Program-made: the position numbers and the translations under genes
The notes under the pieces: generated by a model
The model's input: only the letters and a program-made list of their open reading frames with translations
Databases searched by the model: none
What the model was told of the DNA's origin: nothing
Source of the DNA: Syntrophales bacterium
Lineage (GTDB): Bacteria > Desulfobacterota > Syntrophia > Syntrophales > Fen-1087
Assembly: GCA_034678725.1 (NCBI GenBank)
Contig: JAXDBM010000049.1
Span: forward strand, 10,878 to 74,877
Length of the DNA: 64,000 bases
Direction: 5' to 3'
Part shown: positions 6,200 to 58,602 of the stretch, in pieces
Position numbering within the stretch: the first letter of the stretch is position 1
Layout of the letters: the number at the start of each line of letters is the position of its first letter

Positions 6200-6200
6200 G

Positions 6201-6506
6201 TCAGTCGATCCCCAGGGTGCCGGCGATCTCGGCGAGCATGTCGCCGGCGTCCTCCGCCCGCCGGTGCAGGACCTGGATCTCCCGCTCCATGAAGGGAAGC
6301 AGCTCCACGGCCAGGAAACTGGGCGGCGAGGGCAGGCCCACGAAGGAGCCCAGCAGCAGCAGGGCGAAGATGTTTTCCAGCTCCTGGGCCTCCAGGCAGG
6401 TCAGGGATACGAGGTTCTCTCGCTGCAGCGCGCCGATGTCGGAGAAAATCCGGCGGCAGTAGCGGATCAGCGAAGATGTCTTCCTGTTCGATTTCGAGCG
6501 TGTCAA
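6201..6506 (-). CDS. Hypothetical small protein (101 aa), first gene of the ArsA-like operon
   Basis: This is the only ORF in the interval with non-shadow composition. TTG start, so the start is uncertain. The stop abuts the ArsA-like start. Confidence 0.45.
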   Translation of the reverse strand: MTRSKSNRKTSSLIRYCRRIFSDIGALQRENLVSLTCLEAQELENIFALLLLGSFVGLPSPPSFLAVELLPFMEREIQVLHRRAEDAGDMLAEIAGTLGID

Positions 6507-6571
6507 GCGGGTACGGACCCCTCAATTTCCACGGGAATGCAAAAGCCGAATGCGTCAGGGATGACGGCACC

Positions 6572-6609
6572 CATAAAACAGGGAGGCCCCGCCCGCGGGC
6601 GGGGCCTCC
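6572..6609 (-). terminator. Intrinsic terminator downstream of cstA
   Basis: Perfect 13-bp GC-rich hairpin GGAGGCCCCGCCC-GCG-GGGCGGGGCCTCC (6582..6609), followed on the minus strand by CTGTTTTAT. Confidence 0.6.
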
Positions 6610-6681
6610 GGAACGGCAGTTATTTTCTGCCGGGCGTCTTTCCTTGAGCGGTCGGGAAAGGCGCCGGCAGCGACAACGCGG

Positions 6682-8466: not shown

Positions 8467-8835
8467 GAACTTTCTCCTTTCGTTGGATGAAAAAAATTAA
8501 GATAAAGAACCGGTCCCTGCTTCGGGATTACATCTATTACATTACAGACGTGACCGGGTGGTCCGGCATCGTCTGCGTTTCCCTGACTTCCTTCAAGCTG
8601 TCCGGATTTCGCTTGCCCGGAGCTTGAAAGGACCCCGCACATGGGTGCAAATTTAGTCCCATCAAAATTGAAAGTCAATCATTTTTCCTGGCCCGCCCAT
8701 CCGCAAAGAGTTCATTTTTCTTGACTTCGAGGTTTTACGGGAGCATCATTCTGGCAAGTGAACCGGGGGCGGGGCAGGCCGTTTTCCGTGCCTATGTTCA
8801 GTTCCGCTTCGAACCTTTTCGCGGGAGGTGACAAG

Positions 8836-9438
8836 ATGCCACAGGACGCGCAAACCGGATCCGCCGTCGAGGACCTCAGGATCGGCGGCAAGATCAGGGA
8901 TCTTCGGGAAAAGAACTTTTTTACCCAGCAGGACCTGGCCGCCAAGACCGGGCTGACCAGGGCCGTTCTGGCGGAAATCGAGGCGGACGAGGTTATGCCG
9001 CCCGTGGCCACCCTGCTCAAGCTCGCCAGGGCGCTCAATGTGGGCATGGCGTATTTCTTCAAGGACGAGGCCCCGGTGGAGCAGGTCTCCATCACGCGGG
9101 CGGGGGAGCGGGTCCGCGTCAAGCGGCGGCCCCACCACCGTGAAGGCGAGGTCGATTACGTCTATGAATCCCTCGAGGCCCGCATGCCCGGCAAGCACAT
9201 GGAGCCGCTGCGGGTGGACTTCGTTCCCATGGAGACCGCCGACATGGTGTTCACCAGCCACGAGGGGGAGGAATTCCTCTTCCTCCTGGAAGGCACGCTG
9301 GAGTTCCGCACCAACGACCGGGTGGAAACCCTCTCCGCGGGCGATGCCCTGTATTTCGATTCCGTCCTGAACCACAGCTTCCGGTCGCTGACCGACCAGC
9401 CGGCCAGGGCCGTCGTGGTCGTCTGGAACAAGGTTTGA
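8836..9438 (+). CDS. XRE-family HTH transcriptional regulator with a C-terminal cupin domain
   Basis: ATG 8836 preceded by GGGAGGTG. HTH region IRDLREKNFFTQQDLAAKTGLTRAVLAEIE, then a cupin-like C-terminus (HEGEEFLFLLEGTLEF...GDALYFDS..NH). Confidence 0.85.
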   Translation: MPQDAQTGSAVEDLRIGGKIRDLREKNFFTQQDLAAKTGLTRAVLAEIEADEVMPPVATLLKLARALNVGMAYFFKDEAPVEQVSITRAGERVRVKRRPHHREGEVDYVYESLEARMPGKHMEPLRVDFVPMETADMVFTSHEGEEFLFLLEGTLEFRTNDRVETLSAGDALYFDSVLNHSFRSLTDQPARAVVVVWNKV

Positions 9439-9451
9439 CAGGGGGACCCCG

Positions 9452-10015
9452 ATGATTGAAATCCGTTTTCACGGGCGGGGCGGGCAGGGGACGGTGGTGG
9501 CCACCATCCTGCTGGCCAAGGCCTTTTTCCAGGCGGGCTGGCAGGTTCAGAGCTTCCCCTTCTTCGGGGTCGAGCGGCGCGGCGCGCCCGTCGAGGCCTA
9601 TGTCCGCCTGGACCGCAAGAAGATCCTGCTCCGGACCAACGTGACGGAACCCGACCATGTCGCCGTACAGGATCAGACGCTCCTGCACAGCATCAGCGTC
9701 ACCCGGGGCCTCAAGCCGGGCGGCTGGATCCTGATCAACAGCCCGTCGGCGCCCGCGGACCTCGCGCCCTTTGCCGGATTCCGGCTCGCTCACGTCGATG
9801 CGAACCGGATCGCCATTCAGCACAAGTTGGGGACGCGGACCCATCCCATCGTCAACACGACCATGATCGGCGCCTTTGCCCGGGTGCTGGAAATGCCGCC
9901 CCTGAAGGCCGTGGCGGAAGCCATTCGGGAGGACATCCAGACCGAGGCGGAGCGCAACATCGAGGCGGCCCGGGAGGCCTTTTCCCAGGTCTGCCTGGCG
10001 GGCATGATCGAATAG
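9452..10015 (+). CDS. 2-oxoacid:ferredoxin oxidoreductase, gamma subunit
   Basis: RFHGRGGQGTVVATILLAKA N-terminal signature of POR/VOR/KOR gamma subunits. Confidence 0.85.
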   Translation: MIEIRFHGRGGQGTVVATILLAKAFFQAGWQVQSFPFFGVERRGAPVEAYVRLDRKKILLRTNVTEPDHVAVQDQTLLHSISVTRGLKPGGWILINSPSAPADLAPFAGFRLAHVDANRIAIQHKLGTRTHPIVNTTMIGAFARVLEMPPLKAVAEAIREDIQTEAERNIEAAREAFSQVCLAGMIE

Positions 10016-10033
10016 CAAAGCGGGGAAGCGAGG

Positions 10034-11779
10034 ATGAACGAAGCCATGAAGCCAATACCCCTCTACATGCCGCGCACCTATCTCACCACGGAGAGCAACA
10101 AGACCGGTTCCTGGCGTTTCCTGCGTCCGCGGTACGACGAGAAGACCTCGCCCTGCAGCGCCGCCTGCCCGGCCGGCGAGGACATCGCCAGAATCGAGAT
10201 GCTGGCCGCGCAGGGGCTATTCAAAGAAGCGTGGGAGACAATCCTGCGGGAAAACCCCCTGCCGTCGGTCTGCGGGCGCGTCTGCTTCCACCCCTGCGAG
10301 GGCCGGTGCAACCGACGGGAGTTCGACGCGGCCGTGGCCATCCACAGCCTCGAGCGCTTTCTCGCCGATACGGCAATCCGCTACCGGATCACGCCGGAGA
10401 TGGAGACGCGGCCCGCGCAGCAGCGGAAAATCGCCGTGATCGGCTCCGGCCCGGCGGGCCTTTCGGCGGCGTGGTTCCTGTCCCTGCTGGGCTATGCCTG
10501 CCATGTCTACGAGGCCTCGTCCGAGGCGGGCGGCGTGCTGCGCTGGGGGATTCCCGCGTACCGCCTGCCGCTGAACGCGCTCCGCCATGACCTGCGGCAG
10601 ATCGAGGCCCTGGGCGTCTCGATCTACACGGGAAGGCCGGTGGGCCCGGACCTGCTGGCGGACCTGAAAAGGGATTATGACGGGGTCTTCATCGGCTGCG
10701 GCCACGGCCGGGGAATGTCGCTGCAGGCGCCCGGCGAGGAGCTGCCGCAGGTCGGCGAGGGCCTGGATTTCCTGCGCGAACTCCGAGCGGGCGGGAAGCC
10801 CTCCTGCGGGGGGGTGTCGGCGGTTGTCGGCGGCGGAAACACGGCCGTCGACGTGGCGCGCAGCATCGTGCGCCTGGGCGGAAAGGCGCTGCTCCTCTAC
10901 CGGAGGAGGCGTCAGGACATGCCCGCCTTCGATCTGGAAGTGGAAATGGCCCTCGAGGAGGGCGTGGAGCTGCAGGAACTGGTCGCTCCGGCGGCTGTGG
11001 CTGCCGATGGGGACGGAGTCGTCCTGACGCTGCAGGAGATGAAGATCGCCGGCGAGGAGGGCGGCCGGGGGCGTATCGTGCCGGACGCGGGAAAAACGCG
11101 GCAGGTCCGCGTGGAGAGGGTCTTCAAGGCCATCGGCGCCGGTGCCGCGGAACCCTGGCACCGGCCCCCGGAAGGGGCGCCGGGCCTGCTGCGGTTGAGT
11201 CATGCCGTCCTGGTGCACGGGCAGCCGGGCGCCGTCACGGCCTTCGGCGGAGACTTGACCAACGATACCCGGAGCGCTGTCCATGCCGTCGCCTCGGGCA
11301 AACAGGCGGCCATGGCGTTCGACACGCTTTTTCGGGAAGGGGTCGATGCAATCGTTCCGAAGCTGGATTCCTGCCGGGTCGGCGGTGGCCCGTCGCTTTC
11401 CATGGAGATTTACATGGGCGGGGAGCGGCGGTTGAGGAACCCCCACGTGGTCCGCTTCGAGGAAATCAACACCGATCACTTCCAGTTCGCTTCCCGGGTG
11501 ACCCAGCCGCGCCTGCTCCGGGACGAGCGGATCCGGTCGTTCGAGGAGATCGACCTGAAGATTTCCGCCCACCTGGCCATGAAGGAGTCCGAGCGCTGCT
11601 TCAACTGCGGCCTGTGCAACCAGTGCGACAACTGCTTCATCTTCTGCCCGGACACCTCGGTGATCCGGGACAAGGACCATCAGGGACGGCACATCAACTA
11701 TGACTACTGCAAGGGGTGCGGCCTGTGCGTGGTGGAATGCCCGCGCAACGCCATGTCTCTCGAGGAGGAGAAGTCATGA
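10034..11779 (+). CDS. Fusion protein: OFOR delta-type ferredoxin elements split by a GltD/NfnB-like FAD/NAD(P)H oxidoreductase module
   Basis: N-terminus TGSWRFLRPRYDEKTSPCSAACPAG (delta-subunit-like). GltD-like Fe-S region PLPSVCGRVCFHPCEGRC. Dinucleotide folds IAVIGSGPAGLSAA and VVGGGNTAVDVAR. C-terminal 2x[4Fe-4S]: CFNCGLCNQCDNC...CKGCGLCVVECP. Confidence 0.85.
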   Translation: MNEAMKPIPLYMPRTYLTTESNKTGSWRFLRPRYDEKTSPCSAACPAGEDIARIEMLAAQGLFKEAWETILRENPLPSVCGRVCFHPCEGRCNRREFDAAVAIHSLERFLADTAIRYRITPEMETRPAQQRKIAVIGSGPAGLSAAWFLSLLGYACHVYEASSEAGGVLRWGIPAYRLPLNALRHDLRQIEALGVSIYTGRPVGPDLLADLKRDYDGVFIGCGHGRGMSLQAPGEELPQVGEGLDFLRELRAGGKPSCGGVSAVVGGGNTAVDVARSIVRLGGKALLLYRRRRQDMPAFDLEVEMALEEGVELQELVAPAAVAADGDGVVLTLQEMKIAGEEGGRGRIVPDAGKTRQVRVERVFKAIGAGAAEPWHRPPEGAPGLLRLSHAVLVHGQPGAVTAFGGDLTNDTRSAVHAVASGKQAAMAFDTLFREGVDAIVPKLDSCRVGGGPSLSMEIYMGGERRLRNPHVVRFEEINTDHFQFASRVTQPRLLRDERIRSFEEIDLKISAHLAMKESERCFNCGLCNQCDNCFIFCPDTSVIRDKDHQGRHINYDYCKGCGLCVVECPRNAMSLEEEKS

Positions 11780-45671: not shown

Positions 45672-47102
45672 ATGCTCATTCAGCCCTTTTTTGTTTCCGG
45701 ACTGGCCCATTGCTCGTACCTGCTCGCCGGGTCGAAAAGCTGCGCCGTCATCGATCCGAGGCGGGACGTCCGGGTGTATCTGGATGCGGCGAATTCGCTG
45801 GGCGTCCGGATCACGCACATCCTCGAAACCCACCTTCACGCGGATTTTGTCTCCGGTCACATGGACCTGGCCGAAAAGACCGGGGCCGCGATCTATGCCC
45901 CCCGCTCCGCCGGGTGCGCCTTCGCGCACACGGGTTTGGCAGACGGCGATGTGTTCCATATCGAAGACATGGATGTCCTGGTTCTGGAGACGCCCGGCCA
46001 CACACCGGAGCACATCGTTTACGTCGTCGCGGACCGGTCAAGGGGCGAAGATCCGGTGGCCCTCTTCAGCGGCGACACCCTCTTCGTGGGTGATGTGGGA
46101 AGGCCGGACCTGTTTCCGGGGATCGCGGAGAAACTGGCGGGGGAACTGCACGACAGCCTCTACCGGAAACTGATGGGCCTGCCCGATTTCTGCGAGGTCT
46201 ATCCCGCGCACGGGGCCGGCTCCCTCTGCGGAAGAGAGATATCGGCAAAGCGCACGTCCACCATCGGATATGAAAAGCGGCACAACTACGCGCTGCAAAT
46301 CCCGGACCGGAAGGAGTTCATTCGGCGGCTGACGACCGGGATGCCCGCGGCCCCGGACCACTTCAGCCGCTGCAGCGAGACCAACCGGAAGGGACCTGCC
46401 CGGCTTAAAAGCCTTTCCGCCGCCGTGCCCCTCGATCCCCTATCCTTTTCACGCAGGGCCGAGGGCGCCGGTGTGGCCGTGCTCGATATCCGGCCCTATG
46501 ATGCGTACGGCGGCTTGCATGTCATGGGATCTTTTCACATCGATCTGACCAGCAACTTCAGCACCTTCGCCGGATGGATCCTTCCGCCCGAAGCCGACAT
46601 CCTGCTGGTCGCCGATCACCGGGACCAGGTTGAAAGGGCCTCGGTTCTTCTCAGACGGGTGGGGCTCGACCGGGTGACGGGCTTTCTGGAAGGGGGCTCG
46701 TTTGCCTGGGCCGCCTCCGGATTTCCCCTGGGTCATGTTCCCCAGCTTTCCGTTCAGGATCTGAACGAAAGGATCTGCAGCGGCGAATCGGCCGTCCTTC
46801 TGGACGTGCGAACCGTCGGCGAATTCGAGGGGGGCCATATCGAGGGCGCCATCCATATTCCGGTTCCCGACCTCAGGACCCGACATGGGGAACTGGACCC
46901 GGAGGCGTCGATCGTCGCCATCTGCAACGTGGGACAGCGGGGGACGCTTGCGGCAAGCCTTCTCAAGCAGCGCGGTTTTCAGCGCGTCTCCAATCTGGCC
47001 GGCGGCATGACGGCTTACAATGCCGCCACAGGAGGCGCCGAATGTCCGGTCTGCGCGCTTCCCCACGGACCGGCGCTGTCCGCAGGATCGGGTGGGAGGT
47101 GA
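45672..47102 (+). CDS. MBL-fold hydrolase (persulfide-dioxygenase-like) fused to two rhodanese domains
   Basis: THLHADFVSGH metal motif and HTPEH. C-terminal rhodanese with active-site loop CNVGQRG. AGGAGG lies 6 nt upstream of the ATG. Confidence 0.85.
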   Translation: MLIQPFFVSGLAHCSYLLAGSKSCAVIDPRRDVRVYLDAANSLGVRITHILETHLHADFVSGHMDLAEKTGAAIYAPRSAGCAFAHTGLADGDVFHIEDMDVLVLETPGHTPEHIVYVVADRSRGEDPVALFSGDTLFVGDVGRPDLFPGIAEKLAGELHDSLYRKLMGLPDFCEVYPAHGAGSLCGREISAKRTSTIGYEKRHNYALQIPDRKEFIRRLTTGMPAAPDHFSRCSETNRKGPARLKSLSAAVPLDPLSFSRRAEGAGVAVLDIRPYDAYGGLHVMGSFHIDLTSNFSTFAGWILPPEADILLVADHRDQVERASVLLRRVGLDRVTGFLEGGSFAWAASGFPLGHVPQLSVQDLNERICSGESAVLLDVRTVGEFEGGHIEGAIHIPVPDLRTRHGELDPEASIVAICNVGQRGTLAASLLKQRGFQRVSNLAGGMTAYNAATGGAECPVCALPHGPALSAGSGGR

Positions 47103-47127
47103 GGATCACAGCGTGGAATGGCTCATC

Positions 47128-47634
47128 ATGGAAAGGTGGTCGCCTTACGCGGCGGGGGTCGGAATCGGGATACTGAGCTGGCTGACCTTTCTGCTGTCGG
47201 ACCGGGCCCTCGGCTGCTCCACCGCCTTCGCCCGGACCAGCGGGATGATCGAAAGGCTCTTCCGCGGGGCCAAGGTCCTCGAAAAGCCCTATTACCGGAA
47301 ATTCGTCCCGGAGATCGACTGGGAATGGATGCTGGTCCTCGGGATGTTCTTCGGCGCCCTCGCCTCCTCGGTCCTGTCCGGCCAGTTTCAGATCCAGTGG
47401 GTTCCGGAAAGATGGATGGCGGCTTTCGGCGGTTCGTTCCCCCTTCGCTGGCTGGCCTCGATGGCCGGAGGATTTCTGCTGGGGTTCGGCGCCCGCTGGG
47501 CGGGAGGCTGCACCAGCGGCCACGGGATCAGCGGCACCCTGCAACTGGCCGTCGGCAGCTGGATCGCGACCCTCTGCTTCTTTGTCGGCGGCGTTGTGAC
47601 GGCCCGGCTGATTTTTCAATATTTTCCGAAGTGA
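47128..47634 (+). CDS. YeeE/YedE-family sulfur (or selenium) transport protein, half-size
   Basis: Conserved GARWAGGCTSGHGISG motif and four hydrophobic segments. GTG 47113 is an alternative start, 10 nt after GGGAGGTGAGG. Confidence 0.8.
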   Translation: MERWSPYAAGVGIGILSWLTFLLSDRALGCSTAFARTSGMIERLFRGAKVLEKPYYRKFVPEIDWEWMLVLGMFFGALASSVLSGQFQIQWVPERWMAAFGGSFPLRWLASMAGGFLLGFGARWAGGCTSGHGISGTLQLAVGSWIATLCFFVGGVVTARLIFQYFPK

Positions 47635-47639
47635 CGCGG

Positions 47640-48200
47640 ATGATGCCGGGCAGCCTGCACGAAAACAGAAAAATTCAACTGGTCATCGGTTTTGCGGCCG
47701 GTTTCTTTTTCGGATTCCTGCTCCAGAAGGGAGGGGTCACCCGCTACGACGTCATCATCGGCCAGCTCCTTCTGAGGGACTTCACGATGGTCAAGGTCAT
47801 GCTCTCCGCCGTGGTCACCGGCATGATCGGCGTGCACCTGCTGCGCAGTCTCGGCCTGGCTGCCCTGCACCCGAAGGCCGGTTCCTTCGGGTCGGTCGTT
47901 CCCGGAGGCCTGATCTTCGGGGCGGGATTCGGCCTGCTGGGCTATTGCCCCGGGACCCTGGCCGGCGCCGCGGGTCAGGGGAGCCTGGACGCCCTGCTTG
48001 GAGGGATGGCGGGCGTCCTGATCGGCGCGGGGGTCTTTGCGCAATTCTACCCGAAGCTGGAGCGGGCAATTATCGGAAGGGGTGATTTCGGTGAGATGAC
48101 CATGCCGCAGTTGCTCCGGGTGAATCCCTGGCGGGTGATTCCGGGGGTCGCGATCGCCATCGTCGCCCTGCTGGTCTGGATGGAAAAATCGGGCTTCTGA
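47640..48200 (+). CDS. YeeE/YedE-family transport protein, second half-size paralogue
   Basis: ATG 47640, in frame within track ORF 47118..48200. GFGLLGYCPGT conserved-Cys motif; hydrophobic. Confidence 0.8.
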   Translation: MMPGSLHENRKIQLVIGFAAGFFFGFLLQKGGVTRYDVIIGQLLLRDFTMVKVMLSAVVTGMIGVHLLRSLGLAALHPKAGSFGSVVPGGLIFGAGFGLLGYCPGTLAGAAGQGSLDALLGGMAGVLIGAGVFAQFYPKLERAIIGRGDFGEMTMPQLLRVNPWRVIPGVAIAIVALLVWMEKSGF

Positions 48201-48400: not shown

Positions 48401-49477
48401 TCAGAGGGGTCCCTTCTTGGCGGCGTGCGCCTCCAGGGCATTTTGGATGATGCGGTCGATCAGGTCGGCCTGCGTGATCCCGGCGGCCGCCGCCTGATGG
48501 AACAGGACGGTGGAGGGCGTCATCCCCGGCAGGCTGTTGGGCTCGAGCACCGCGATCCGACCGCTTTCGGTGACGAACATGTCGATCCGGGCATAGCCCT
48601 TCAGATCGAGCGCCTGAAAACTCCGGACTGCGATGTCCCGGATTTTTTCCAGAGTTTCCTTCGGCAGGCGTGCCGGGGTCTTGTTCTCGCCCTGCCCGTA
48701 GAGGAATTTGTCCTCCAGGGACAGGATCGCCGTCGTCGGGATCGTCTCGGAGGGGGTGAGCGCGACGGGATGGTGATTCCCGACGACCCCGCAGGTGACC
48801 TCCATGCCGGTCAGAAATTCCTCGACCAGGACGGTGTCATCCCAGGCAAAGGCCCCTTCCAGCGCCTCGGGGATGCCGTCCGCGGAGACGACCTTCCGGA
48901 CCGCCGTGCTGCACCCTTCCCGGGTGGGCTTGACCACGCAGGGGTAGCCGATCTCCGAGGCGATCTTCTTCAGGATCGCCTCGCGGCTGTCAGGCGTCCA
49001 TTGTCCACTGAAAATCGGCAGCGTGCGGGGCACGTCGATGCCGCTGATGGACAGGATCTTTCGGCCGGTCCACTTGTCCATGCCCAGTGCCGAGGCCAGA
49101 ACGCCCGAGCCGGTGTAGGGGATTCGTACAAGCTCCAGGAGCCCCTGCATGCAGCCGTCCTCTCCGTATTTGCCGTGCAGCCCCAGGCAAACCACGTCGA
49201 CCCGGGATTTGATCTGCTCATAGGCGATGGGCGTTGCCTCGTCGGGAAGGTCCTCCTCGATGTCCCGAGTGCTGTTGCGCATCAACAGTTTGATCGGGAT
49301 TTCCCAGAGGGCCGCCCTGCTGTCCATGAAAATGGCGACCGGATCGTATTTCCGGCGGTCGATCTTGCTGTAGATGTTTCTGCCGCTCTCCAGGGAGACC
49401 TCCTTTTCCGATGAGACTCCCCCCATGATGATGCCGACCCGGAGTTTGGCGGCGGGATGATCCGTTGATGAAGCCAT
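48401..49477 (-). CDS. ddl: D-alanine--D-alanine ligase family protein (paralogue 1; omega-loop Lys-Phe)
   Basis: IIMGGVSSEKEVSLESG, LHGKYGEDGCMQGLLELVRIPYTGSG, and an ATP-grasp C-terminus LEPNSLPGMT. The omega-loop reads ILSLEDKFLYG. Confidence 0.9.
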   Translation of the reverse strand: MASSTDHPAAKLRVGIIMGGVSSEKEVSLESGRNIYSKIDRRKYDPVAIFMDSRAALWEIPIKLLMRNSTRDIEEDLPDEATPIAYEQIKSRVDVVCLGLHGKYGEDGCMQGLLELVRIPYTGSGVLASALGMDKWTGRKILSISGIDVPRTLPIFSGQWTPDSREAILKKIASEIGYPCVVKPTREGCSTAVRKVVSADGIPEALEGAFAWDDTVLVEEFLTGMEVTCGVVGNHHPVALTPSETIPTTAILSLEDKFLYGQGENKTPARLPKETLEKIRDIAVRSFQALDLKGYARIDMFVTESGRIAVLEPNSLPGMTPSTVLFHQAAAAGITQADLIDRIIQNALEAHAAKKGPL

Positions 49478-50403: not shown

Positions 50404-51459
50404 TCAGAGGGGGCCCTTCTTGTCCCGGTGGATCGCGAGGGCGTTCCGGATCAGGGCGGAGATGATCATCCCGGGCAGGAGGCCGGCGCTGGCAGCCTGC
50501 TCGAAGAAAAAGGAGGAGGGTGCCATGCCGGATGAAGAGTTGGGGTCGGTGATCAGGATCCGGCCGTCCTTCAGGCAGAATCCGTCAATGCGGCCGTAGG
50601 AGCGGAATCCAAGGGCATGGTAGGCCCGAAGCACGGATTCCCGGATTCGATCCGCCGTTTCGCGGGGGATGTTTTTCGGCGGCGTGAATTTGCGGCATCG
50701 TCCGGGCATGTACTTGTCGTCATAGGTGTAGTAGGCGCTCTGCGGGTAGATTTCCGTCAGTTCCAGCACCCGGGCCTCTCCATCGTCCTCCAGGACGATG
50801 GCGGAAAATTCGATGCCGTCGAGATACTCCTCCACCAGGGCGGCGTTGTCCCATTGGAGGGCGGCGTCGATGCCCGCCGCGAGGCCGGCCGGATCGTCCA
50901 CACGGGTGACGCCGACGCTCGATCCTTCGCGGGTCGGTTTCGTGAAGAAGGGGAAGGAAAACCGCTCCAGGATCTCCTTTTGGACGGCCTCCCGCCTTTC
51001 CCGCCAGTCCCATGCGGTAACGACCATGCTGCGCGGCACATCGATTCCCTCCGACATCAGGACTTTCTGCTGGAGATGCTTGTCCATGCCGAGGGCGGAT
51101 GCCAGGACGCCGGGGCCGGTGTAGGGGATGTTCAGGAGTTCGAGCAGCCCCTGGATGCAGCCGTCGTCCCCGTACTTTCCGTGCAGGGAGATGAAGGCGA
51201 AATCGATTTCCCTTTTCAGGTCCTCGTAGGCGATCCGGCGGGCCTCCCCTTCGAGGTGGTCGGAGATGTCCAGGGTCGTGTTCTGGGAGATGAGCTGCCA
51301 CGGAATGACCCACAGCCTCCCCTCGGCGTCCATGAAGATGGGAACGGCCCCATACAGCTCGGGGTCGAGGTTGTCGTGAACGTTCCTTCCGCTGTTGAGG
51401 GAGACCTCACGTTCCGAAGACATCCCCCCCAGAATGATCCCGATGCGCAGTTTTTTCAT
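50404..51459 (-). CDS. ddl: D-alanine--D-alanine ligase (paralogue 2; canonical omega-loop Lys-Tyr)
   Basis: ATG 51459. IILGGMSSEREVSLNSG and LHGKYGDDGCIQGLLELLNIPYTGPG. The omega-loop YYTYDDKYMPG resembles E. coli DdlB FYDYEAKY. Confidence 0.9.
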   Translation of the reverse strand: MKKLRIGIILGGMSSEREVSLNSGRNVHDNLDPELYGAVPIFMDAEGRLWVIPWQLISQNTTLDISDHLEGEARRIAYEDLKREIDFAFISLHGKYGDDGCIQGLLELLNIPYTGPGVLASALGMDKHLQQKVLMSEGIDVPRSMVVTAWDWRERREAVQKEILERFSFPFFTKPTREGSSVGVTRVDDPAGLAAGIDAALQWDNAALVEEYLDGIEFSAIVLEDDGEARVLELTEIYPQSAYYTYDDKYMPGRCRKFTPPKNIPRETADRIRESVLRAYHALGFRSYGRIDGFCLKDGRILITDPNSSSGMAPSSFFFEQAASAGLLPGMIISALIRNALAIHRDKKGPL

Positions 51460-51734
51460 CGTCTCTTCCCGGAGTCGCGCCGCCGCGGGCATCGCGCCCG
51501 GATCGCGTCCGGTCGGCTGCACGTTCGGCTGAGGCGCCCCTTCCAATTATTTTTTTACGGTTCGTGCCGCATTTCATACTTTACAACGGCTTTACCGTCG
51601 AGGAAATGTTTTGCCGTATATCACAGTCGGCGGGCGGTGGGAAGACCGTGCAAGTAGGGCGGGCCGGAGACGGCCTGAAGGTCCGGGCCGCGGCCGGCGG
51701 ACCGTCGAACGCATGACCGGTGACGGGGCTGCGG

Positions 51735-53720
51735 CTACGCCCAGATAAATGTGACGCCGCTGGTGGGAAAGATCCACTCGTCGTCGCTGATCCGGAGTGT
51801 GATGGACCGGTCCTTCACTCGGGTGATCACCGGTGAGGGGTTCCTCCCGGCGAAGAAGCTGATCTCCCGGACATTCCGGACGCGCGCCCCCTCGTAGTTG
51901 AAGCGGATGTCCAGCCCCCGCGTGGGGTAGACCAGATAAACGGAGAACAGGTTGTTGCGCTTCGATTTCTTGGTCACGATTTCGATTGCAATCCTGGCCT
52001 GGCGGTTGACTTTTTTCTTCAGATCCTCGCCGCCGCACCAGACCTCGTAGCCCCGGTCCGTGATTTCCGTCCGAATGATGGGGACCGGATCATCGTCGAT
52101 ACAGACGCGGCTCACCCGGAAATCCTTTTCCGTGATCGCCTCGTCGCGTTGGCCGAGCAGCCAGCGGTACTCGCACCGCTTATCGTCGAACAGCGAGGCG
52201 AGCTGCTCGTTATTCATGGCGCAGCCGATCATGAAGACGGGATGGCTGAGGGCCTTGGTGTATTCGATGCGCGTGGTGACCTTGAAATCATCTCCGGACG
52301 GGCGATCGGAGGCCATTTCCGCCTCCGTGAATTCCTCGATGTGGATGTCGTAGCGGAAGTTCGTCCGCAGCTCGAGCTGCCGGTCCTCCTTGCCGAACAG
52401 GGTTTCGAACATCTCGTAGTAGATGGCGTCGCCCAGCTCCTCGCTGCGCGCCCGGGTCTGGAGGCAATGCCGGAGGATGTTGTCGATGCGGGCAAGGGAT
52501 TTTTCCTCGTCGGGGATGAAGACCCTCCGGAGGCGGGGAGCCACGGTGTCCGTTTTGCCCTTCTGCAGGAAGACCCGCGGCGCCCGCTTGCCCAGGGCGC
52601 ACAGGATCTCGTAGCTGATGGTCCGGATGCGGTTCGCGATCTCGTTGGCGGTGATCGCTTCGCTTCCCTGCCGGCCGAGGATCACCACCTCGTCCCCCAC
52701 TTGGCAGTCCTGAATGTGGCTGACATTGACGGTGCACATGTCCATGGAAACCCGCCCGACGATGGCGGCCCGCTTTCCCTGAATGAGCACCTCGCCCTGG
52801 TTCGACAGGAGCACGTCGTAGCCGTCCCCGTAGCCGACGGGGATCGTCGCGATCCGGGTGGGCTTGTGGGTCATATAGGTCCGGTTGTAGCCGATGCTGT
52901 AGCCTTCCGGAAACTCTTTGATGAGCACGATCCGGGTCTTGAAGCTCATGACCGGGGCGAGGCTCGCCTTTCCTGCGGTGTCGGGCGAGGGGTAGATGCC
53001 GTAGGACATGATGCCCGGCCGGACCATGTCCAGGTGGAACCCGGGGTAATTGAGGATGCCCCCGCTGTTGCACATGTGCCGGACGGGAATCCGGACCCGG
53101 TGGGCCGCCAGCTTGTCCAGCAGATCCTTGAACAGGCGCCACTGCCGGTCGTTGTACTCGATCATCACCTCGCTGGCCGCCAGGTGGGTGAAGATCCCCT
53201 CGACAACGACGTTCGGAAATGCGAGGATTTCCCGGATCATGTCGAAGGCCTCGTAATGGATGGTGCCGCCGCGGCCCATCCCGGTGTCCACCTCGATGTG
53301 TATGGGGGCCTTGATCCCCGCCTTGCGGAACTGCCTCTGCAGCTCCCGGGCAAAACAGATGTCGGAGACCGACGGTGTCAGGTTGTACTTGATGATCTGG
53401 CCGATTTCGTAATCCGGCGAGGGGCTGAGGATGACGATGGGTGCGCTGATGTCGCTGACCCGGAGCTGAACGCCCTCATCCGCGTTGGCGACGCCGAGGC
53501 AGGCCGCGCCGTTTTTCAGCGCCACATTGGCGATTTCCATCGCGCCGTGCCCGTAGGCGTCGGCCTTCACCACCTGCATGATGCGCACGGCAGGGCCCAC
53601 GAGCCGCTTCATCTCATTCCAGTTTTGGGTGAAGTGATCGAGGTCGACTTCCACCCAGCTTCTGTACCGCTGTTCCTCTTTCAACGCCATGTCCCCTGTC
53701 CCCGGGCCGCTTCCACACAT
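51735..53720 (-). CDS. alr: Alanine racemase fused to a ~276-aa C-terminal domain of unknown function
   Basis: The PLP-lysine block VVKADAYGHG and the Alr fold to about aa 385 (..ISYEILCALGKRAPRVF). A further 276 aa have no motif I recognise. ATG 53690 is an alternative start. Confidence 0.85.
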   Translation of the reverse strand: MCGSGPGTGDMALKEEQRYRSWVEVDLDHFTQNWNEMKRLVGPAVRIMQVVKADAYGHGAMEIANVALKNGAACLGVANADEGVQLRVSDISAPIVILSPSPDYEIGQIIKYNLTPSVSDICFARELQRQFRKAGIKAPIHIEVDTGMGRGGTIHYEAFDMIREILAFPNVVVEGIFTHLAASEVMIEYNDRQWRLFKDLLDKLAAHRVRIPVRHMCNSGGILNYPGFHLDMVRPGIMSYGIYPSPDTAGKASLAPVMSFKTRIVLIKEFPEGYSIGYNRTYMTHKPTRIATIPVGYGDGYDVLLSNQGEVLIQGKRAAIVGRVSMDMCTVNVSHIQDCQVGDEVVILGRQGSEAITANEIANRIRTISYEILCALGKRAPRVFLQKGKTDTVAPRLRRVFIPDEEKSLARIDNILRHCLQTRARSEELGDAIYYEMFETLFGKEDRQLELRTNFRYDIHIEEFTEAEMASDRPSGDDFKVTTRIEYTKALSHPVFMIGCAMNNEQLASLFDDKRCEYRWLLGQRDEAITEKDFRVSRVCIDDDPVPIIRTEITDRGYEVWCGGEDLKKKVNRQARIAIEIVTKKSKRNNLFSVYLVYPTRGLDIRFNYEGARVRNVREISFFAGRNPSPVITRVKDRSITLRISDDEWIFPTSGVTFIWA

Positions 53721-53984
53721 CCTTCCTGAAACCGCGACGTGCGAATCATACCAGAGGCTTCGGTGTTGTCAAGGCAAAGCTCGGACTTGGTTTGTGGAAA
53801 CAGCCATTGGAAATTTTCCATTATCCGTCCGATCGTCGCTGTCGAACACCTGCTTCGACCGCCCTCTCTGGCTCCGCTCGCGCTCCGCCGATCAAGGCCG
53901 TTCGAGCAGACCCCGCCCCAAGGGGCTGTAACGATCCATCGTTCGCATAAAGAGAGAAAAATCCTTGCTGCTATGACGTTATGG

Positions 53985-54002: not shown

Positions 54003-54019
54003 ACATGGGGGGTGATAAT

Positions 54020-54253
54020 ATGAAATCAGCAGCAACACGCGCCACCGTATACCTGGACCCGGAATTACATAAAGCTCTTCGCTTAAAGGCAGTTGAAACA
54101 TCACAGTCTCTATCGAAATTAGTGAATGATGCCATCAAAGAATCTCTGGCGGAAGACGCTGAAGACATTGCAGCTTTTGGGGAAAGAGTTAAAGAGCCCT
54201 TAATCAGTTACGAAACAATGATCAAGAGGCTGAAAATCGATGGCAAAATATGA
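54020..54253 (+). CDS. Ribbon-helix-helix (CopG/RelB-like) type II antitoxin
   Basis: ATG 54020 preceded by GGGGGTGA. RATVYLDPELHKALRLKAVETSQSLSKLVNDAIKESL is an RHH pattern. It overlaps the toxin gene by 14 nt. Confidence 0.75.
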   Translation: MKSAATRATVYLDPELHKALRLKAVETSQSLSKLVNDAIKESLAEDAEDIAAFGERVKEPLISYETMIKRLKIDGKI

Positions 54254-54497
54254 AATCTATTTCAAACAATCCGTCGAAAAAGACTTCCGTGCGATACCCA
54301 AAAAAGATTTAAGGAAGATTATCCATTGCATTGAGGCGCTTTCTAAAGATCCGAGACCCCCAGGCCATGAAAAACTAACAGGGCAAGAGAGATACCGTGT
54401 TCGACAAGGGCGGTACAGGATTATCTATTCCGTTCAGGAGAAAGAGCTTACAATTTGGATCGTGAAGGTGGGGCATCGAAGAGATGTTTATCGCTGA
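54240..54497 (+). CDS. relE: RelE/ParE-family type II toxin
   Basis: YRVRQGRYRIIYSVQEKELTIWIVKVGHRRDVY, the typical RelE/StbE C-terminal signature. Confidence 0.85.
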   Translation: MAKYEIYFKQSVEKDFRAIPKKDLRKIIHCIEALSKDPRPPGHEKLTGQERYRVRQGRYRIIYSVQEKELTIWIVKVGHRRDVYR

Positions 54498-54546: not shown

Positions 54547-54811
54547 CGCTAAATGACTGCCCGGGCGATGCTCTGCCGTTTACAAGAAATCCGTGCTGTC
54601 CCGGTGTGAAGCACTCTTCCCGGTGCGAACGGGATTACCCACCTTTACCCTTCATTTTACAATGCTGTTCTGATCCGCGGAAATCTTTCCTGTAAAATAT
54701 TCATCAATCATTACAAAAACATGAGATTCATTTCCCTGCCGGATGGCCCTTTTGGCACGATTCCTGATTGCAACCGACGCCGAAAAGACTTTTCACAAGG
54801 GAGGCATGCAG

Positions 54812-55762
54812 ATGACGGCTTCAAGAAACAGGGTGGCCGCGGTCTTTCCGGGGCAGGGCGCCCAGCGGCCTGGCATGGGGCGGGACTTCCATGACCGCGC
54901 CGCCGTCTGCCGGGAGACCTACGAGGAGGCATCGGATGCGCTGGGTTGGGACGTTGCCGCCATGTGCTTCGGGAACGACGAGCGGCTGGACCGAACGGAG
55001 TACACGCAGCCCTGCCTGCTGACGACGGAACTGGCAATGTTCCGGGGACTTTGCGAGCTGCATGGGATTCATCCGTCCCTTTACGGGGGTCACAGCCTCG
55101 GCGAGTTTACCGCCCTGGTCGCGGCCGGCGTCATTCCCCTTTCCGATGCCGTCCGGATCGTGCAGTCGCGGGGCAGGCTGATGCAGGAGGCGGCCCCGGC
55201 CGGCCTGGGCGGAATGGCGGCGGTGATTGCCGACGCGCTGGATGCCGACGACCTCGATCACGCCCTGTCCGATCTTCCCGTCGATATCGCGAATGTCAAC
55301 TCGCCGAAGCAGATCGTTCTCAGCGGGGCCGCGGAGGCCCTGTCCGAGGCGGCGGTCCGGATCGTCGATGTCCTGGAGGAAGGCAGGCCCTTCCGCTTCG
55401 TTCCCCTCAATGTCAGCGCCCCCTTTCACAGCCGGTTCATGCGCTGTGTGGAGGGCGAATTTTCAAGGATCCTCCAGTCCCTGAGCGAACGGATGGACGC
55501 GAAAAAAGCCGTCGCGGTCACTTCCAATTTCACCGGCGGATTCCACGAAACGAACCCGGATGATCTGCTGAGCGCCCTCACCTGCCAGATCGGGAGCCGG
55601 GTCCGCTGGGTGGACAACATGGAAGCCATCGCCGCGGAGGCCGATCGGATCTACGAAATCGGCCCGGCCCGGCCGCTCCGGGAATTTTTCAAATCGATCG
55701 ATGTCCACTGCCTGTCCGTGACGACGCTTTCCTCGGCGTCCCGGCTGTTCGGGAGCAATTGA
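54812..55762 (+). CDS. fabD: Malonyl-CoA:ACP transacylase
   Basis: AAVFPGQGAQRPGMG and active-site GHSLGEFTALVAAG. ATG 54812 lies 7 nt after AAGGGAGG; ATG 54806 is an alternative. Confidence 0.9.
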   Translation: MTASRNRVAAVFPGQGAQRPGMGRDFHDRAAVCRETYEEASDALGWDVAAMCFGNDERLDRTEYTQPCLLTTELAMFRGLCELHGIHPSLYGGHSLGEFTALVAAGVIPLSDAVRIVQSRGRLMQEAAPAGLGGMAAVIADALDADDLDHALSDLPVDIANVNSPKQIVLSGAAEALSEAAVRIVDVLEEGRPFRFVPLNVSAPFHSRFMRCVEGEFSRILQSLSERMDAKKAVAVTSNFTGGFHETNPDDLLSALTCQIGSRVRWVDNMEAIAAEADRIYEIGPARPLREFFKSIDVHCLSVTTLSSASRLFGSN

Positions 55763-55765
55763 GAC

Positions 55766-56965
55766 ATGGACTTCCATCTGAACGATCAGCAGCAGATGTA
55801 TGTGGACACGGTCCGCCGCTTCGTCCGGACGGAGATCCTGCCGCAGGTCATGGACATGGAACGGAAACACGTTTTCCCCATGCAGATCATCCGCAAGGCC
55901 TGGGAGACGGGCATCCTCAATCTCAGCATTCCGGACGCGATCAAGGAGTACGAGATCGACGCCGTATCGTCCGCGCTGATCATCATGGAGCTTTCCTACG
56001 GCGATTCGGGGATCGCCACGTCGGCCATGTGCAACGATCTCGCCAACGTGATCATCGCCCGTCATGGGAGCGCCGCACAACAGGAGCGGTTCCTCCGCCC
56101 CTTCGTCGAAAGGCCGCTGTTGGCTTCCTTCTGCCTGACCGAACCGGGTGCAGGCTCCGACAACGGCGCCATGATCTCCTGCATGAGCAAGCAGGCGGAC
56201 GGCTCGTACCGGCTCAACGGAACGAAATGCTTCATCACCAATGCCTCCTACGCATCCCAGTTCACGGTCTTCTGCAAGGTGGGAAAGCCGGGCAGTTCGC
56301 TGATGGCCTGCGTCGTCGTTCCCGCCGGGTCCGTTTCCCCGGAAGATATGCAGGGCGATGGAGAAGGGATCCGGGAGATCGACATCGCGGCGGGCGGGAA
56401 AATCGTCGTCGCGAAGGCGGAGGACAAGCTCGGGCAGCGCCTGTCCAACACGGCCGGTGTCACCTTCGAGGACGTGGTGATTGCCCCCGACCAGATCATC
56501 GGGGACCGGCGTCTGGGATTCCGCTACATCGTCGATGTCCTCGACTACGCCCGGCCCATGGTGGCGGCGATCGGCGTCGGGCTGGCGAGGCGCGCGCTGG
56601 ATGTCACGCTGGCCTACACCCGGGAGCGCCGCCAATTCAGCCAGCGCATCTGCGACCTTCCAGTGGCGCGGGAATCGCTGGTGGCCATGTGGAAAAAAGT
56701 GGAAATGGCGGAGATGGCCCTGCTGAAGTCCGCCTGGAAACTCCAGACGGGGGCGCCGGACGGCGGCCTCTACGCCTCGCTGGCGAAAAATGCCGCAGCG
56801 GAGGCGTCCCTCTTCTGCGCGAACGAGGGGCTCCACCTCCACGGCGGCTACGGATTCATGTCGGAATACGAGATTTCGAAGCTGGTCCGGGACGCCCATA
56901 TCCTCGACATCTACGAGGGCGTCCGGGAGGTCCAGAACATGATCATCGGCCGGGAGCTGGTCTGA
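55766..56965 (+). CDS. Acyl-CoA dehydrogenase-family flavoenzyme (possibly acting on acyl-ACP)
   Basis: ACAD fold: CLTEPGAGSD, FITNA and the C-terminal catalytic-Glu block DIYEGVREVQ. It starts 3 nt after the fabD stop, and its stop overlaps the fabH start (TGATG). Confidence 0.9.
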   Translation: MDFHLNDQQQMYVDTVRRFVRTEILPQVMDMERKHVFPMQIIRKAWETGILNLSIPDAIKEYEIDAVSSALIIMELSYGDSGIATSAMCNDLANVIIARHGSAAQQERFLRPFVERPLLASFCLTEPGAGSDNGAMISCMSKQADGSYRLNGTKCFITNASYASQFTVFCKVGKPGSSLMACVVVPAGSVSPEDMQGDGEGIREIDIAAGGKIVVAKAEDKLGQRLSNTAGVTFEDVVIAPDQIIGDRRLGFRYIVDVLDYARPMVAAIGVGLARRALDVTLAYTRERRQFSQRICDLPVARESLVAMWKKVEMAEMALLKSAWKLQTGAPDGGLYASLAKNAAAEASLFCANEGLHLHGGYGFMSEYEISKLVRDAHILDIYEGVREVQNMIIGRELV

Positions 56966-57954
56966 TGGCGCTTTACCTGCACGGTCTGGGTCACTTCCAC
57001 CCGGAGAACGTGATCTCCAACCGTTTCCTCGAGGAGCTGGACATCGGCACGACCCAGGAGTGGATCATGGAGCGGGTCGGCATTCAGGAGCGCCGCACGG
57101 CCCTTTCCCTGGACTATATTCAGGCGACGCGGAACCGCGATCCGCGGGCGGCGCTGGAGGCGAGCAGCCATACGAACGCGCGGATCGGCGCGGCGGCGGC
57201 CCGAATGGCCTTGGATCGGGCGGGGCTCGGTCCGGAGGACATCGGCCTCGTCGTTTCCGGAAGCTCGGCCCCGGACCACGTCACGCCCGCCGAGGCGGCG
57301 GTGGTGGCGGCGGAACTGGACATCGAAGCGCCCTGTTTCGACATGAATGCCGCCTGCGCCACCTTTGGCGTGCAGATGCATTTTCTGAGCGGAATGCGGC
57401 CGGAAGCGCTTCCGCCTTACGTCCTGGTGGTCAACCCGGAGAGCCTCACCCGCTGCGTCGATTATTCGGACCGGAACACGGCTGTGCTCTTCGGGGACGG
57501 CGGCACGGCGGCCGTCGTCTCGGCGGCCGTGCCGTCGCGCATTCATGTTCAGGACTGCCGTTGCGATGCCCGGCCGTCGGCCTGGCGGAAGGCGTCGATT
57601 CCCCGTACCGGCTATTTCCGGCAGGAGGGGAACGCCGTCCAGGGGTTTGCAATCCGCCGCATGACGGACACCGTCCGAATGCTTCAGGATTCCCACGGCC
57701 GCAACGGCCATCGCTTTCTCTTCGCCGGACACCAGGCGAACCTGGGAATCCTGCAGACGGTCTGCGCGCGGACGGGAATCGCGGAGGATCACCACTGGCA
57801 CAATGTGGTCCGCTTCGGCAACGCCGGCTGCTCGGGCGCGCCTGCGGCCGTGAGCCAGCGCTGGGGCGATCTGAAGCCGGGCGACCGTCTGGCCATGGCT
57901 TTCGTGGGCGCGGGGCTGAGCTGGGCGTCTCTGATGCTGGTAGTCGAGGAATGA
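56965..57954 (+). CDS. fabH: 3-oxoacyl-ACP synthase III (FabH-like)
   Basis: These are the last 329 codons of track ORF 55759..57954. Cys-His-Asn triad contexts DMNAACATFG, GHQANLGI and FGNAGCSG. Confidence 0.85.
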   Translation: MALYLHGLGHFHPENVISNRFLEELDIGTTQEWIMERVGIQERRTALSLDYIQATRNRDPRAALEASSHTNARIGAAAARMALDRAGLGPEDIGLVVSGSSAPDHVTPAEAAVVAAELDIEAPCFDMNAACATFGVQMHFLSGMRPEALPPYVLVVNPESLTRCVDYSDRNTAVLFGDGGTAAVVSAAVPSRIHVQDCRCDARPSAWRKASIPRTGYFRQEGNAVQGFAIRRMTDTVRMLQDSHGRNGHRFLFAGHQANLGILQTVCARTGIAEDHHWHNVVRFGNAGCSGAPAAVSQRWGDLKPGDRLAMAFVGAGLSWASLMLVVEE

Positions 57955-57996
57955 CGGAAAGATATCGATGATACGCATTTTGCGGGGATGTGAAGC

Positions 57997-58602
57997 ATGA
58001 GAATCGGTTACCGGGAATTCCGGGAGAGGAAAAGTTTCGGCCTGGCTGACCTGATCGCCTTTTCCCGCGGCAGCCTGGTGGCGGATCCCCCGGCGGGATT
58101 CGAGGCAAGGCTGCCCGCCCCGCCGTTCCTGATGGTGGACCGCATCCTGCGGATCGAGGCCGACGGACGGAGGGGAAAGATCGTGGCGGAGCAGGACATC
58201 CGCCTGGACGCCTGGTATTTCCAGTGCCATATGCCCGGGGACCCGGTGCAGCCGGGCTGTTTGTGCGTGGATGCCGTCTGGCAGCTCCTGGGATTTTACG
58301 GGACCTGGCGTGGCGGTCTGGGTGCGGGGAGGGCGCTGGGGTGCGACGGGGTGGCCTTTACCGGCCAGATCCGGCCCTACCACCGAGTCGTACGTTTCGA
58401 AATCGACATTCGCCGCTTTGCCGTTCTGGCCGATTCGGGAGCCGGCATCGTGATCGGCGACGGCGCGATCTCCGTCGACGGCGAGCCCGTTGCCGAGGTC
58501 CGTCAGGCCCGGACAGGCCTGTTCCGGGGAATCGTCTATGGCGGTTACCCCTGGCCGGAAAGCGCCGGGGAAGGGCGCATGCCGGCCGGTTGCACGGCAT
58601 GA
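57997..58602 (+). CDS. fabA: FabA-type 3-hydroxyacyl-ACP dehydratase / trans-2-decenoyl-ACP isomerase homologue
   Basis: LPAPPFLMVDRI and YFQCHMPGDPVQPGCLCVDAVWQLLGFY align with E. coli FabA LPAPNMLMMDRV and [28 protein letters not shown]. The catalytic His and Asp are retained. Confidence 0.85.
   Translation: MRIGYREFRERKSFGLADLIAFSRGSLVADPPAGFEARLPAPPFLMVDRILRIEADGRRGKIVAEQDIRLDAWYFQCHMPGDPVQPGCLCVDAVWQLLGFYGTWRGGLGAGRALGCDGVAFTGQIRPYHRVVRFEIDIRRFAVLADSGAGIVIGDGAISVDGEPVAEVRQARTGLFRGIVYGGYPWPESAGEGRMPAGCTA

Follow-up and report, generated by a model that had tools for sequence, protein, structure and literature searches.

Alanine racemase (Alr) figures in textbooks as a constitutive housekeeping enzyme, and antibiotics target it; the racemase is obligately dimeric, and its active sites need dimerisation. 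The usual length is about 360-410 amino acids (aa), and no solved chain extends beyond about 417 aa, in agreement with the remark in a first-pass annotation of the DNA studied here that Alr is normally a stand-alone enzyme. Racemases joined to a further module are also described, namely VanT, the membrane-bound serine/alanine racemase of the VanC/E/G/L/N clusters, and the bifunctional MurF-Alr (PRK11930 / NF008897), which is common in Bacteroidota. Here we analyse a different arrangement, a gene (Alr-X) in which a complete Alr is followed in frame by a C-terminal tail of 276 residues (aa 386-661, window 51738-52565), below called X. It lies in a 64,000-nucleotide (nt) stretch of a Syntrophales bacterium genome (assembly GCA_034678725.1, contig JAXDBM010000049.1, positions 10,878 to 74,877), which is the window to which all coordinates refer unless a locus is named. 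A literature search returned nothing on C-terminal domains of Alr in Syntrophales or on a link between CHASE2 and Alr. Our preferred reading, to which we give a probability of roughly 0.45, is that X is a regulatory module which senses a ligand or a partner and in this way controls the supply of D-alanine (D-Ala).

The N-terminal 385 residues of Alr-X represent a complete Alr of the stand-alone kind (TIGR00492; 4y2w, 4luy, 1sft). Both racemase domains were recognised by Pfam (PF01168 Ala_racemase_N at aa 25-244, E 7.6e-65, 219 bits; PF00842 Ala_racemase_C at aa 257-383, E 5.7e-49, 165 bits), and the 'alr' equivalog TIGR00492 matched aa 21-385 with 358.7 bits against a cut-off of 168. The end of this match agrees with the first-pass annotation, which had placed the end of the Alr fold near residue 385 and counted 276 further in-frame codons; the peptides quoted there were all found in the translation of the open reading frame (ORF), and the interval given, 51735-52565, corresponds exactly to aa 386-661 with the stop codon included. 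For each of the 48 solved racemase sequences, none above about 417 aa in length, homology ends at about aa 389 of Alr-X. The protein thus differs from stand-alone Alr by 276 extra, independently folding residues, an extension found in no solved Alr and in no model family. The racemase half looks catalytically competent, because the lysine for pyridoxal phosphate (PLP) and the tyrosines of SIGY and ISYEIL have aligned counterparts in the solved enzymes 4y2w and 4luy: VVKADAYGHG aligns with VIKGDAYGHG/VIKADAYGHG and SIGY with IGY/ISY, and the entryway tyrosine of ISYEIL has counterparts in both structures (the roles of the PLP lysine and of the second catalytic tyrosine, contributed by the other subunit, are those of established Alr enzymology). 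The entryway residue of VanT is Asn, that of Alr-X is Tyr as in Alr, and with Asn taken as the VanT residue the racemase half looks to be of the Ala type and not of the VanT (Ser) type. No second, short alr gene was found within the 64-kb window.

Alr-X shares with VanT the combination of an Alr-fold racemase and an extra module, as well as a position beside paralogues of Ddl (the ligase that makes D-Ala-D-Ala) that differ in specificity. However, the extra module of VanT is N-terminal and has multiple transmembrane (TM) segments, whereas that of Alr-X is C-terminal, soluble and beta-rich; a TM segment is absent from Alr-X, and the protein opens directly with the Alr fold. An assignment to VanT was rejected, since the scores for NF033132/NF033131 (212 vs 900 and 340 vs 460 bits, the 340 bits being the score of the window Alr with the VanT-G catalytic model) lie below the cut-offs. 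Genes for VanR, VanS and VanXY were not found within the window. In MurF-Alr, as in Alr-X, Alr is fused to another component (locus L097 below encodes an 832-aa example), but the partner there is a known enzyme in N-terminal position and here an unannotated domain in C-terminal position. A MurF-Alr identity was rejected as well (341.7 bits vs a cut-off of 804, covering only model positions 455-821, with no Mur ligase match in Pfam).

The fusion is not peculiar to the window genome. A scan of one genome per species yielded 304 genomes that encode a relative of the tail, and the best 80 of the 304 were analysed as loci; all 80 are metagenome-assembled genomes (MAGs) of Syntrophales, Syntrophaceae or Smithellaceae, with 61-96% identity. 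Racemase and tail share one open frame in each of the 80 loci, the ORFs without truncation have about 650-700 codons, and the fusion is order-wide in Syntrophales. The ORF of the window counts 661 codons from its first ATG, although the true start is likely Met11 (window 53690), where homologues and public gene calls begin, giving a protein of 651 aa. Such gene calls are independent, number in the hundreds and range from 649 to 655 aa; in one of them (P0297, 651 aa) the tail matches that of the window at 100% identity. Divergent Alr-tail fusions of 615-671 aa are present in MAGs of Cloacimonadota and Gemmatimonadota, all named 'alanine racemase' in their source.

Conservation was computed over 71 complete orthologues compared with the window sequence. 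Mean identity is 68.5% for the tail and 73.0% for the racemase half (r = 0.93), and 39% of the tail columns are at least 90% conserved. The mean top-residue frequency reaches 0.83 in the linker (aa 386-410) and 0.90 in the helices that follow it (aa 411-445), the most conserved stretch in the whole protein, compared to 0.79-0.83 in the catalytic domains. The tail is under strong purifying selection, and the fusion is real, ancient and strongly constrained. The probability is negligible that it arose instead through chimeric assembly, a frameshift or an overlooked stop, or that the tail is a functionless leftover. It is true that GC-rich DNA yields long spurious frames and that the gene is split in some public gene calls (those from error-prone long-read assemblies). 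However, frameshift, missed stop and chimera are excluded because the two halves are in frame in 80/80 independent genomes, the tail is conserved to the degree just given and hundreds of gene calls have 649-655 aa, and this includes a stop or frameshift at the junction, which the first-pass annotation had named as a result that would overturn its claim. The confidently modelled fold of the tail (see below) and the recurrence of the Alr-tail fusion in other phyla also speak against an artefact or a remnant. One long frame, of 1,447 codons in L057 (6485-10828), was considered as a cyclase-Alr-X triple fusion and was dropped; the cyclase lies in another frame, and the translation is Arg/Pro/Gly-rich nonsense, a no-stop artefact of GC-rich DNA.

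The first-pass annotation could place no motif in the tail, and the database searches were equally empty: no family was matched at E <= 1 in Pfam, NCBIfam or PADLOC, and no chain at E <= 10 among PDB sequences, so that the tail is not, as far as these profiles reach, a known domain routinely fused to Alr. An AlphaFold2 model of the tail alone, built on a 15-sequence alignment, had a predicted local distance difference test score (pLDDT) of 77.5 and a predicted TM-score (pTM) of 0.73, with the first approximately 26 residues disordered, followed by two helices and a beta-rich core of approximately 14 strands (core pLDDT mostly 85-95). In the full-length AlphaFold2 model both halves were confident (mean pLDDT 83, pTM 0.59) and the helices occupied aa 409-424 and 427-442; the linker (394-408) had a pLDDT below 50, as it also had in the tail model. 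The pTM of 0.59 and the low-confidence linker, despite the pLDDT of 83, indicate that Alr and X are two modules rather than one globule, with a mutual orientation that is not confidently fixed in the modelled monomer. Docking of the linker on the racemase was sought in the full-length model, but the linker is of low confidence there and no interface can be claimed. We regard X as an autonomous, previously undescribed domain that consists of two helices and a beta-rich core of about 215 residues.

Structural searches with the tail gave a single type of match in Foldseek, the beta domain at the N-terminus of M1 aminopeptidases (E about 1e-5 with a probability of 1.0, over about 245-260 aligned columns; 145 PDB matches below E 0.001), and the top match type in BFVD was again the M1 aminopeptidase N-domain. 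The likeness of X to the N-domain of M1 aminopeptidases and LTA4 hydrolase (4p8q, 3qnf, 4gaa) is a weak one of fold only, with a TM-score of only 0.33-0.37, a root-mean-square deviation of 6-9 Å and a sequence identity of 6-10%. A Peptidase_M1_N profile match was absent from the tail at E <= 1 and from 95 diverse X family members at E <= 0.01, and whereas M1 enzymes carry a catalytic M1 domain, none is attached to X. SAVED, CARF, cNMP-binding and STING domains gave no Pfam or PADLOC match with the tail or its relatives and were absent among the top Foldseek matches.

Alr fusions are a minority of a larger family of X proteins. An exhaustive profile search over 1.84 billion representatives (clusters at 50% identity) identified 305 proteins at E <= 0.001, 129 of them at E <= 1e-10, and the fusion partners were surveyed in 150 representatives of the 305 matches. 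Most members have 350-420 aa, in which one to three TM helices at the N-terminus are joined to X by a helical linker; other members carry a class III nucleotide cyclase (P0187, P0219 and P0202; PF00211, with weak PycC-like PADLOC matches), a TIR-like module (P0211 and P0217, the TIR match being below threshold) or a caspase domain (P0150, a fragment) in front of X. The domain is always at the C-terminus behind interchangeable N-terminal modules, an architecture which we read as that of a C-terminal input domain behind TM, class III cyclase, TIR-like, caspase or Alr modules. The first-pass annotation had proposed a check for free-standing forms; probable ones of about 270-280 aa were found on long contigs. 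Among the top 120 matches listed in a large search with a diverse alignment, nearly all were Alr fusions. In public databases the Alr-fused members are labelled 'alanine racemase' and the other members 'hypothetical protein'. A metagenomic protein of 274 aa (P0075) has about 90 unrelated N-terminal residues and the tail from about aa 90, and is either a chimeric assembly or a fusion with another partner.

The family is recognised by a C-terminal hallmark, W-x-F-P-x-x-G-x-x-F-x-W, which reads W-x-F-P-x-S-G-x-x-F-x-W in the window. The positions conserved across the family are Y487, L491, F534, P599, W649, F651, P652, G655, F658 and W660 (full-length numbering), and seven of them (W649, F651, P652, G655, F658, W660, P599) are present in the window and kept in 73-98% of 100 family sequences. 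The window tail possesses this hallmark, YP-x-x-G and the two-helix segment, and is matched by the A2 profile; the 'YGDAIYxDF' region of its helix segment is homologous in TM-anchored relatives (alignment A3). A neighbour-joining tree of X united the Alr-fused tails in one clade, the sister clade of which consists of proteins with three TM helices (TM-X proteins below).

Could X be a second enzyme that acts on a D-Ala-containing compound, e.g. as a hydrolase, transferase or thiol-dependent isomerase, and that makes Alr-X bifunctional like MurF-Alr? Bifunctional fusions in the D-Ala branch are known (NF008897, MurF/Alr), and tail and racemase are constrained to the same degree. The core of the tail contains the motifs GCA..QL, CEYRW and YPTRG, and within GCA...CEYRW and YP(T/V)(R/K)G there are Cys, Glu, Arg and Tyr residues (C500, C516, E517, R519, Y598 and R601) that are invariant in both the Alr-fused and the TM-anchored clade. 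Across the whole family, however, no polar or catalytic-type residue is common to the 100 sequences, and because only hydrophobic or structural positions are conserved, a binding or regulatory role of X is to be expected rather than an enzymatic one. Furthermore, searches of Pfam, NCBIfam and PDB linked neither the window tail nor 95 diverse members to an enzyme family (Pfam gave no match in the X region of the 95 members at E <= 0.01), the fold resembles a non-catalytic beta domain, and TM, TIR, caspase and cyclase partners are typical of sensor-effector proteins. We consider a second enzymatic activity improbable, and we infer that X is regulatory rather than catalytic and that it would act on the racemase.

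The closest parallels to the architecture of the X family are defence effectors such as TIR-SAVED and 2TM-SAVED (CBASS) and TM or TIR modules joined to cNMP-binding domains (Pycsar), which follow the same architectural logic. The cyclase modules of the X family weakly resemble PycC. However, X itself has no sequence match to SAVED, CARF or cNMP-binding domains or to PADLOC models, and the neighbours in the X family are a B12-radical SAM enzyme and a HExxH protein and not the CD-NTases of defence systems. In three loci (L005 1678-5865, L006 1530-5575 and L007) a gene for a B12-binding radical SAM enzyme (about 510 aa) is followed by one for a HExxH-x16-EEG gluzincin-like protein (about 370 aa) and by 2TM-X or cyclase-X. 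PADLOC found nothing in these loci but a weak PDC-M51A match for the radical SAM enzyme, and their components differ from those of Ophion, a published radical SAM defence system; the arrangement looks like an undescribed effector system. An interpretation of the HExxH..EEG protein as an M1-like catalytic domain was dropped, as it had no PDB sequence match. In L097, a TIR-like-X gene (6001-7179) is separated by about 700 nt from the convergent 832-aa MurF-Alr gene on the opposite strand (7880-10378), with TraG-like and helix-turn-helix genes in the surroundings; this proximity is probably a coincidence.

The gene neighbourhoods of X point to the D-Ala branch of cell-wall synthesis. The TM-X sister-clade proteins adjoin a Ddl gene in 8/8 independent loci (L003, L008, L010, L012 and L093-L096). 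Their usual, Chloroflexi-type order is alpha/beta-hydrolase, MurF-like ligase (TIGR01143, 234-277 bits, with an N-terminal extension of about 190 aa), Ddl, TM-X, M15 dipeptidase of the DdpX/VanX-like type and, in part, a 145-aa ORF; MurA is encoded upstream in L095. A metagenome scan with degenerate patterns returned two TM-X loci, both with Ddl and M15 neighbours. The occurrence of a D-Ala-D-Ala ligase and a dipeptidase in one TM-X operon is van-like. In most Syntrophales loci a first ligase gene (Ddl1) lies directly downstream of Alr-X, often with a second one (Ddl2) and sometimes with a gene for an outer-membrane protein (OMP) between the two, and the genes for Alr-X and Ddl1 often overlap or lie very close together. 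The window shows the order Alr-tail, Ddl, 267-aa TIGR04219-like OMP and second Ddl, confirming the statement of the first-pass annotation that the fusion stands first in a cluster which also contains two Ddl paralogues and an OMP. Its further suggestion that X may regulate or localise D-Ala supply stands in part: the murF-ddl-X-ddpX context of TM-X in all eight loci backs the link to D-Ala, while the regulating or localising itself is kept here as a proposal.

In 50/80 Syntrophales loci (within L016-L092), or in about 44/58 of the loci that have at least 2.3 kb of upstream sequence, a second neighbour recurs, a CHASE2-class III cyclase-TPR gene that lies directly upstream of Alr-X and shares its strand. 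The gap between the two genes has a median of 66 nt (range -15 to 284), and in L066 the cyclase gene spans 6679-8862 and encodes 727 aa. The Smithella-type clade has the upstream cyclase, too. In the window, a ParDE-like pair, i.e., a ribbon-helix-helix antitoxin and a ParE-family toxin (54005-54497, plus strand), occupies an island of low GC content (0.43) that adjoins the Alr-X promoter on its upstream side, where most relatives carry the cyclase; the island may be an insertion that displaced the cyclase gene. The promoter itself (Table 1) matches 11/12 consensus positions, a consensus match only.

If X is a regulatory module, it would be a cytoplasmic input module that binds a small ligand or a partner protein, and binding would set the activity or the assembly state of the dimeric racemase, so that D-Ala production would follow the state of the D-Ala-D-Ala precursor branch or a cyclase-borne signal. 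Because the active sites of Alr arise only on dimerisation, one plausible route would be control of its assembly by a ligand or a partner. Candidate ligands that the D-Ala-branch neighbourhoods suggest are D-Ala-D-Ala, D-Ala-D-lactate (D-Ala-D-Lac) or UDP-MurNAc-peptide, whereas the cyclase neighbourhood and the cyclase-X fusions suggest a cyclic nucleotide, which would be produced by the CHASE2 cyclase whose gene adjoins Alr-X in most relatives. Several observations weigh against this proposal. The monomer models show no defined contact between X and the racemase, the tail contains no recognisable ligand-binding motif, and the invariant C500, C516, E517, R519, Y598 and R601 could equally be catalytic. 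The neighbourhood signals of D-Ala branch and cyclase would imply different ligands, and each signal is missing from some loci: the Smithella-type clade has no adjacent Ddl genes, an upstream cyclase is absent from the window and from L013 and L014, its two nearest relatives, and the TM-X operons have no cyclase either. The tree on which the sister-group relationship is based was computed by neighbour-joining without support values.

The same neighbourhoods would be compatible with a scaffold or docking domain that senses nothing and tethers the racemase to Ddl1, Ddl2, MurF or the membrane-bound CHASE2-cyclase, either in a D-Ala-D-Ala 'metabolon' or so as to bring D-Ala synthesis to the membrane's inner face. 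The relatives of X are mostly membrane-anchored, the sister clade is encoded between ddl and ddpX beside murF, and the Alr-X and Ddl1 genes are often abutting; the linker and helices are most conserved yet disordered in the monomer models, as a partner-dependent interface would look; the sole structural likeness is to the M1 N-domain, which packs on another, catalytic domain; and the radical SAM-type systems pair X with a HExxH..EEG protein that recalls the M1 catalytic motif. On the other hand, X is also found on TIR-like, caspase and cyclase modules with no connection to Ddl or MurF, Smithella-type genomes retain the tail without adjacent ligase genes, and no relationship in sequence could be detected between the metallopeptidase-like partner and M1 enzymes. 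Weighing both sides, we regard tethering as rather unlikely.

The regulatory reading can also be extended, with much less confidence, to a new class of intracellular receptors, in which X would make a signal-gated alanine racemase in Syntrophales and gate effectors elsewhere. Upstream, the envelope-sensing CHASE2 cyclase would make a cyclic nucleotide, or the Ddl/MurF branch a D-Ala-peptide; the ligand bound to X would then switch D-Ala synthesis and the balance between Ddl1 (canonical) and Ddl2 (depsipeptide-type). The same domain would gate TM-pore, TIR, caspase and cyclase effectors, and these effectors would belong to unrecognised three-gene B12-radical SAM/HExxH systems. We consider this extension doubtful.

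The two ligases of the window differ in the residues that bear on specificity (numbering of E. coli DdlB, in which positions 15/150/215/216 read E/S/K/Y). Ddl1 has the E/S/Y triad of the dipeptide type, and its DDKYMPG is kept in 55 orthologues; its start is the probable MKKLRIG at about 51459. Ddl2 departs from the dipeptide type with an E/C/F triad, and EDKFLYG is present in 42/42 orthologues. A Y/F ligase pair recurs in the Chloroflexi-type locus L012. The exchange Y216F turns DdlB from a dipeptide into a depsipeptide ligase, and the reverse change resulted in vancomycin-sensitive Lactobacillus reuteri (PMC3378904). Because Ddl2 has Phe at the Tyr216 position, we predict from its sequence an altered specificity of the depsipeptide type, possibly for D-Ala-D-Lac. 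Regulation of the D-Ala supply that feeds two alternative ligases would give a coherent picture, which we put forward as a proposal. The OMP gene is located between the ligase genes in about 20/80 loci, and in L001 and L002, though not in the window, the cluster is followed by MlaEFD genes.

Table 1. Features of the Alr-X locus in the window (residue numbers of Alr-X are counted from the first ATG).
Feature	Position	Strand	Remarks
Alr-X fusion ORF	51735..53720	minus	uninterrupted, 661 codons counted from first ATG
Racemase catalytic module	52566..53660	minus	aa 21-385
Linker	52491..52565	minus	aa 386-410, QKGKTDTVAPRLRRVFIPDEEKSLARI; conserved, modelled as disordered
Two-helix segment of tail	52386..52490	minus	aa 411-445, ...ELGDAIYYEMFETLFGKEDRQ
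Beta-rich core of tail	51738..52385	minus	aa 446-661, about 14 strands
Sigma-70-like promoter	53745..53772	minus	TTGACA, 16-nt spacer, TATGAT, upstream TG; precedes Alr-X ORF
Ddl1	50404..51546	minus	NF002528 267 bits; E15/S150/Y216 triad
OMP, beta-barrel-like, 267 aa	49496..50299	minus	TIGR04219 94.7 bits, below cut-off of 105
Ddl2	48401..49477	minus	NF002528 285 bits; Phe at Tyr216, Cys at Ser150

Further out in the window, genes on the plus strand encode a FabD-like acyltransferase, an acyl-CoA dehydrogenase, a KAS III-like protein and hot-dog-fold ORFs (54743-58602) on one side, and a metallo-beta-lactamase-rhodanese protein and a YeeE/YedE-like sulphur transporter (45672-48200) on the other. 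Both groups of flanking genes appear unrelated to Alr-X.

What is new here is a known enzyme with a domain from an undescribed family, for which comparative genomics backs a link to D-Ala supply. The X domain family, with at least 305 clusters at 50% identity, is unannotated, having no entry in Pfam, NCBIfam, PADLOC or PDB, and it may mark new effector systems. Syntrophales are key syntrophs of methanogenic environments and hard to culture, so that leads derived from genomes are valuable for this order. To our knowledge, post-translational control of D-Ala supply is essentially undescribed. An order-wide regulatory module on Alr, if true, would provide a testable case of signal-dependent control of cell-wall precursors, with the same module sitting in murF-ddl-ddpX operons of another phylum.

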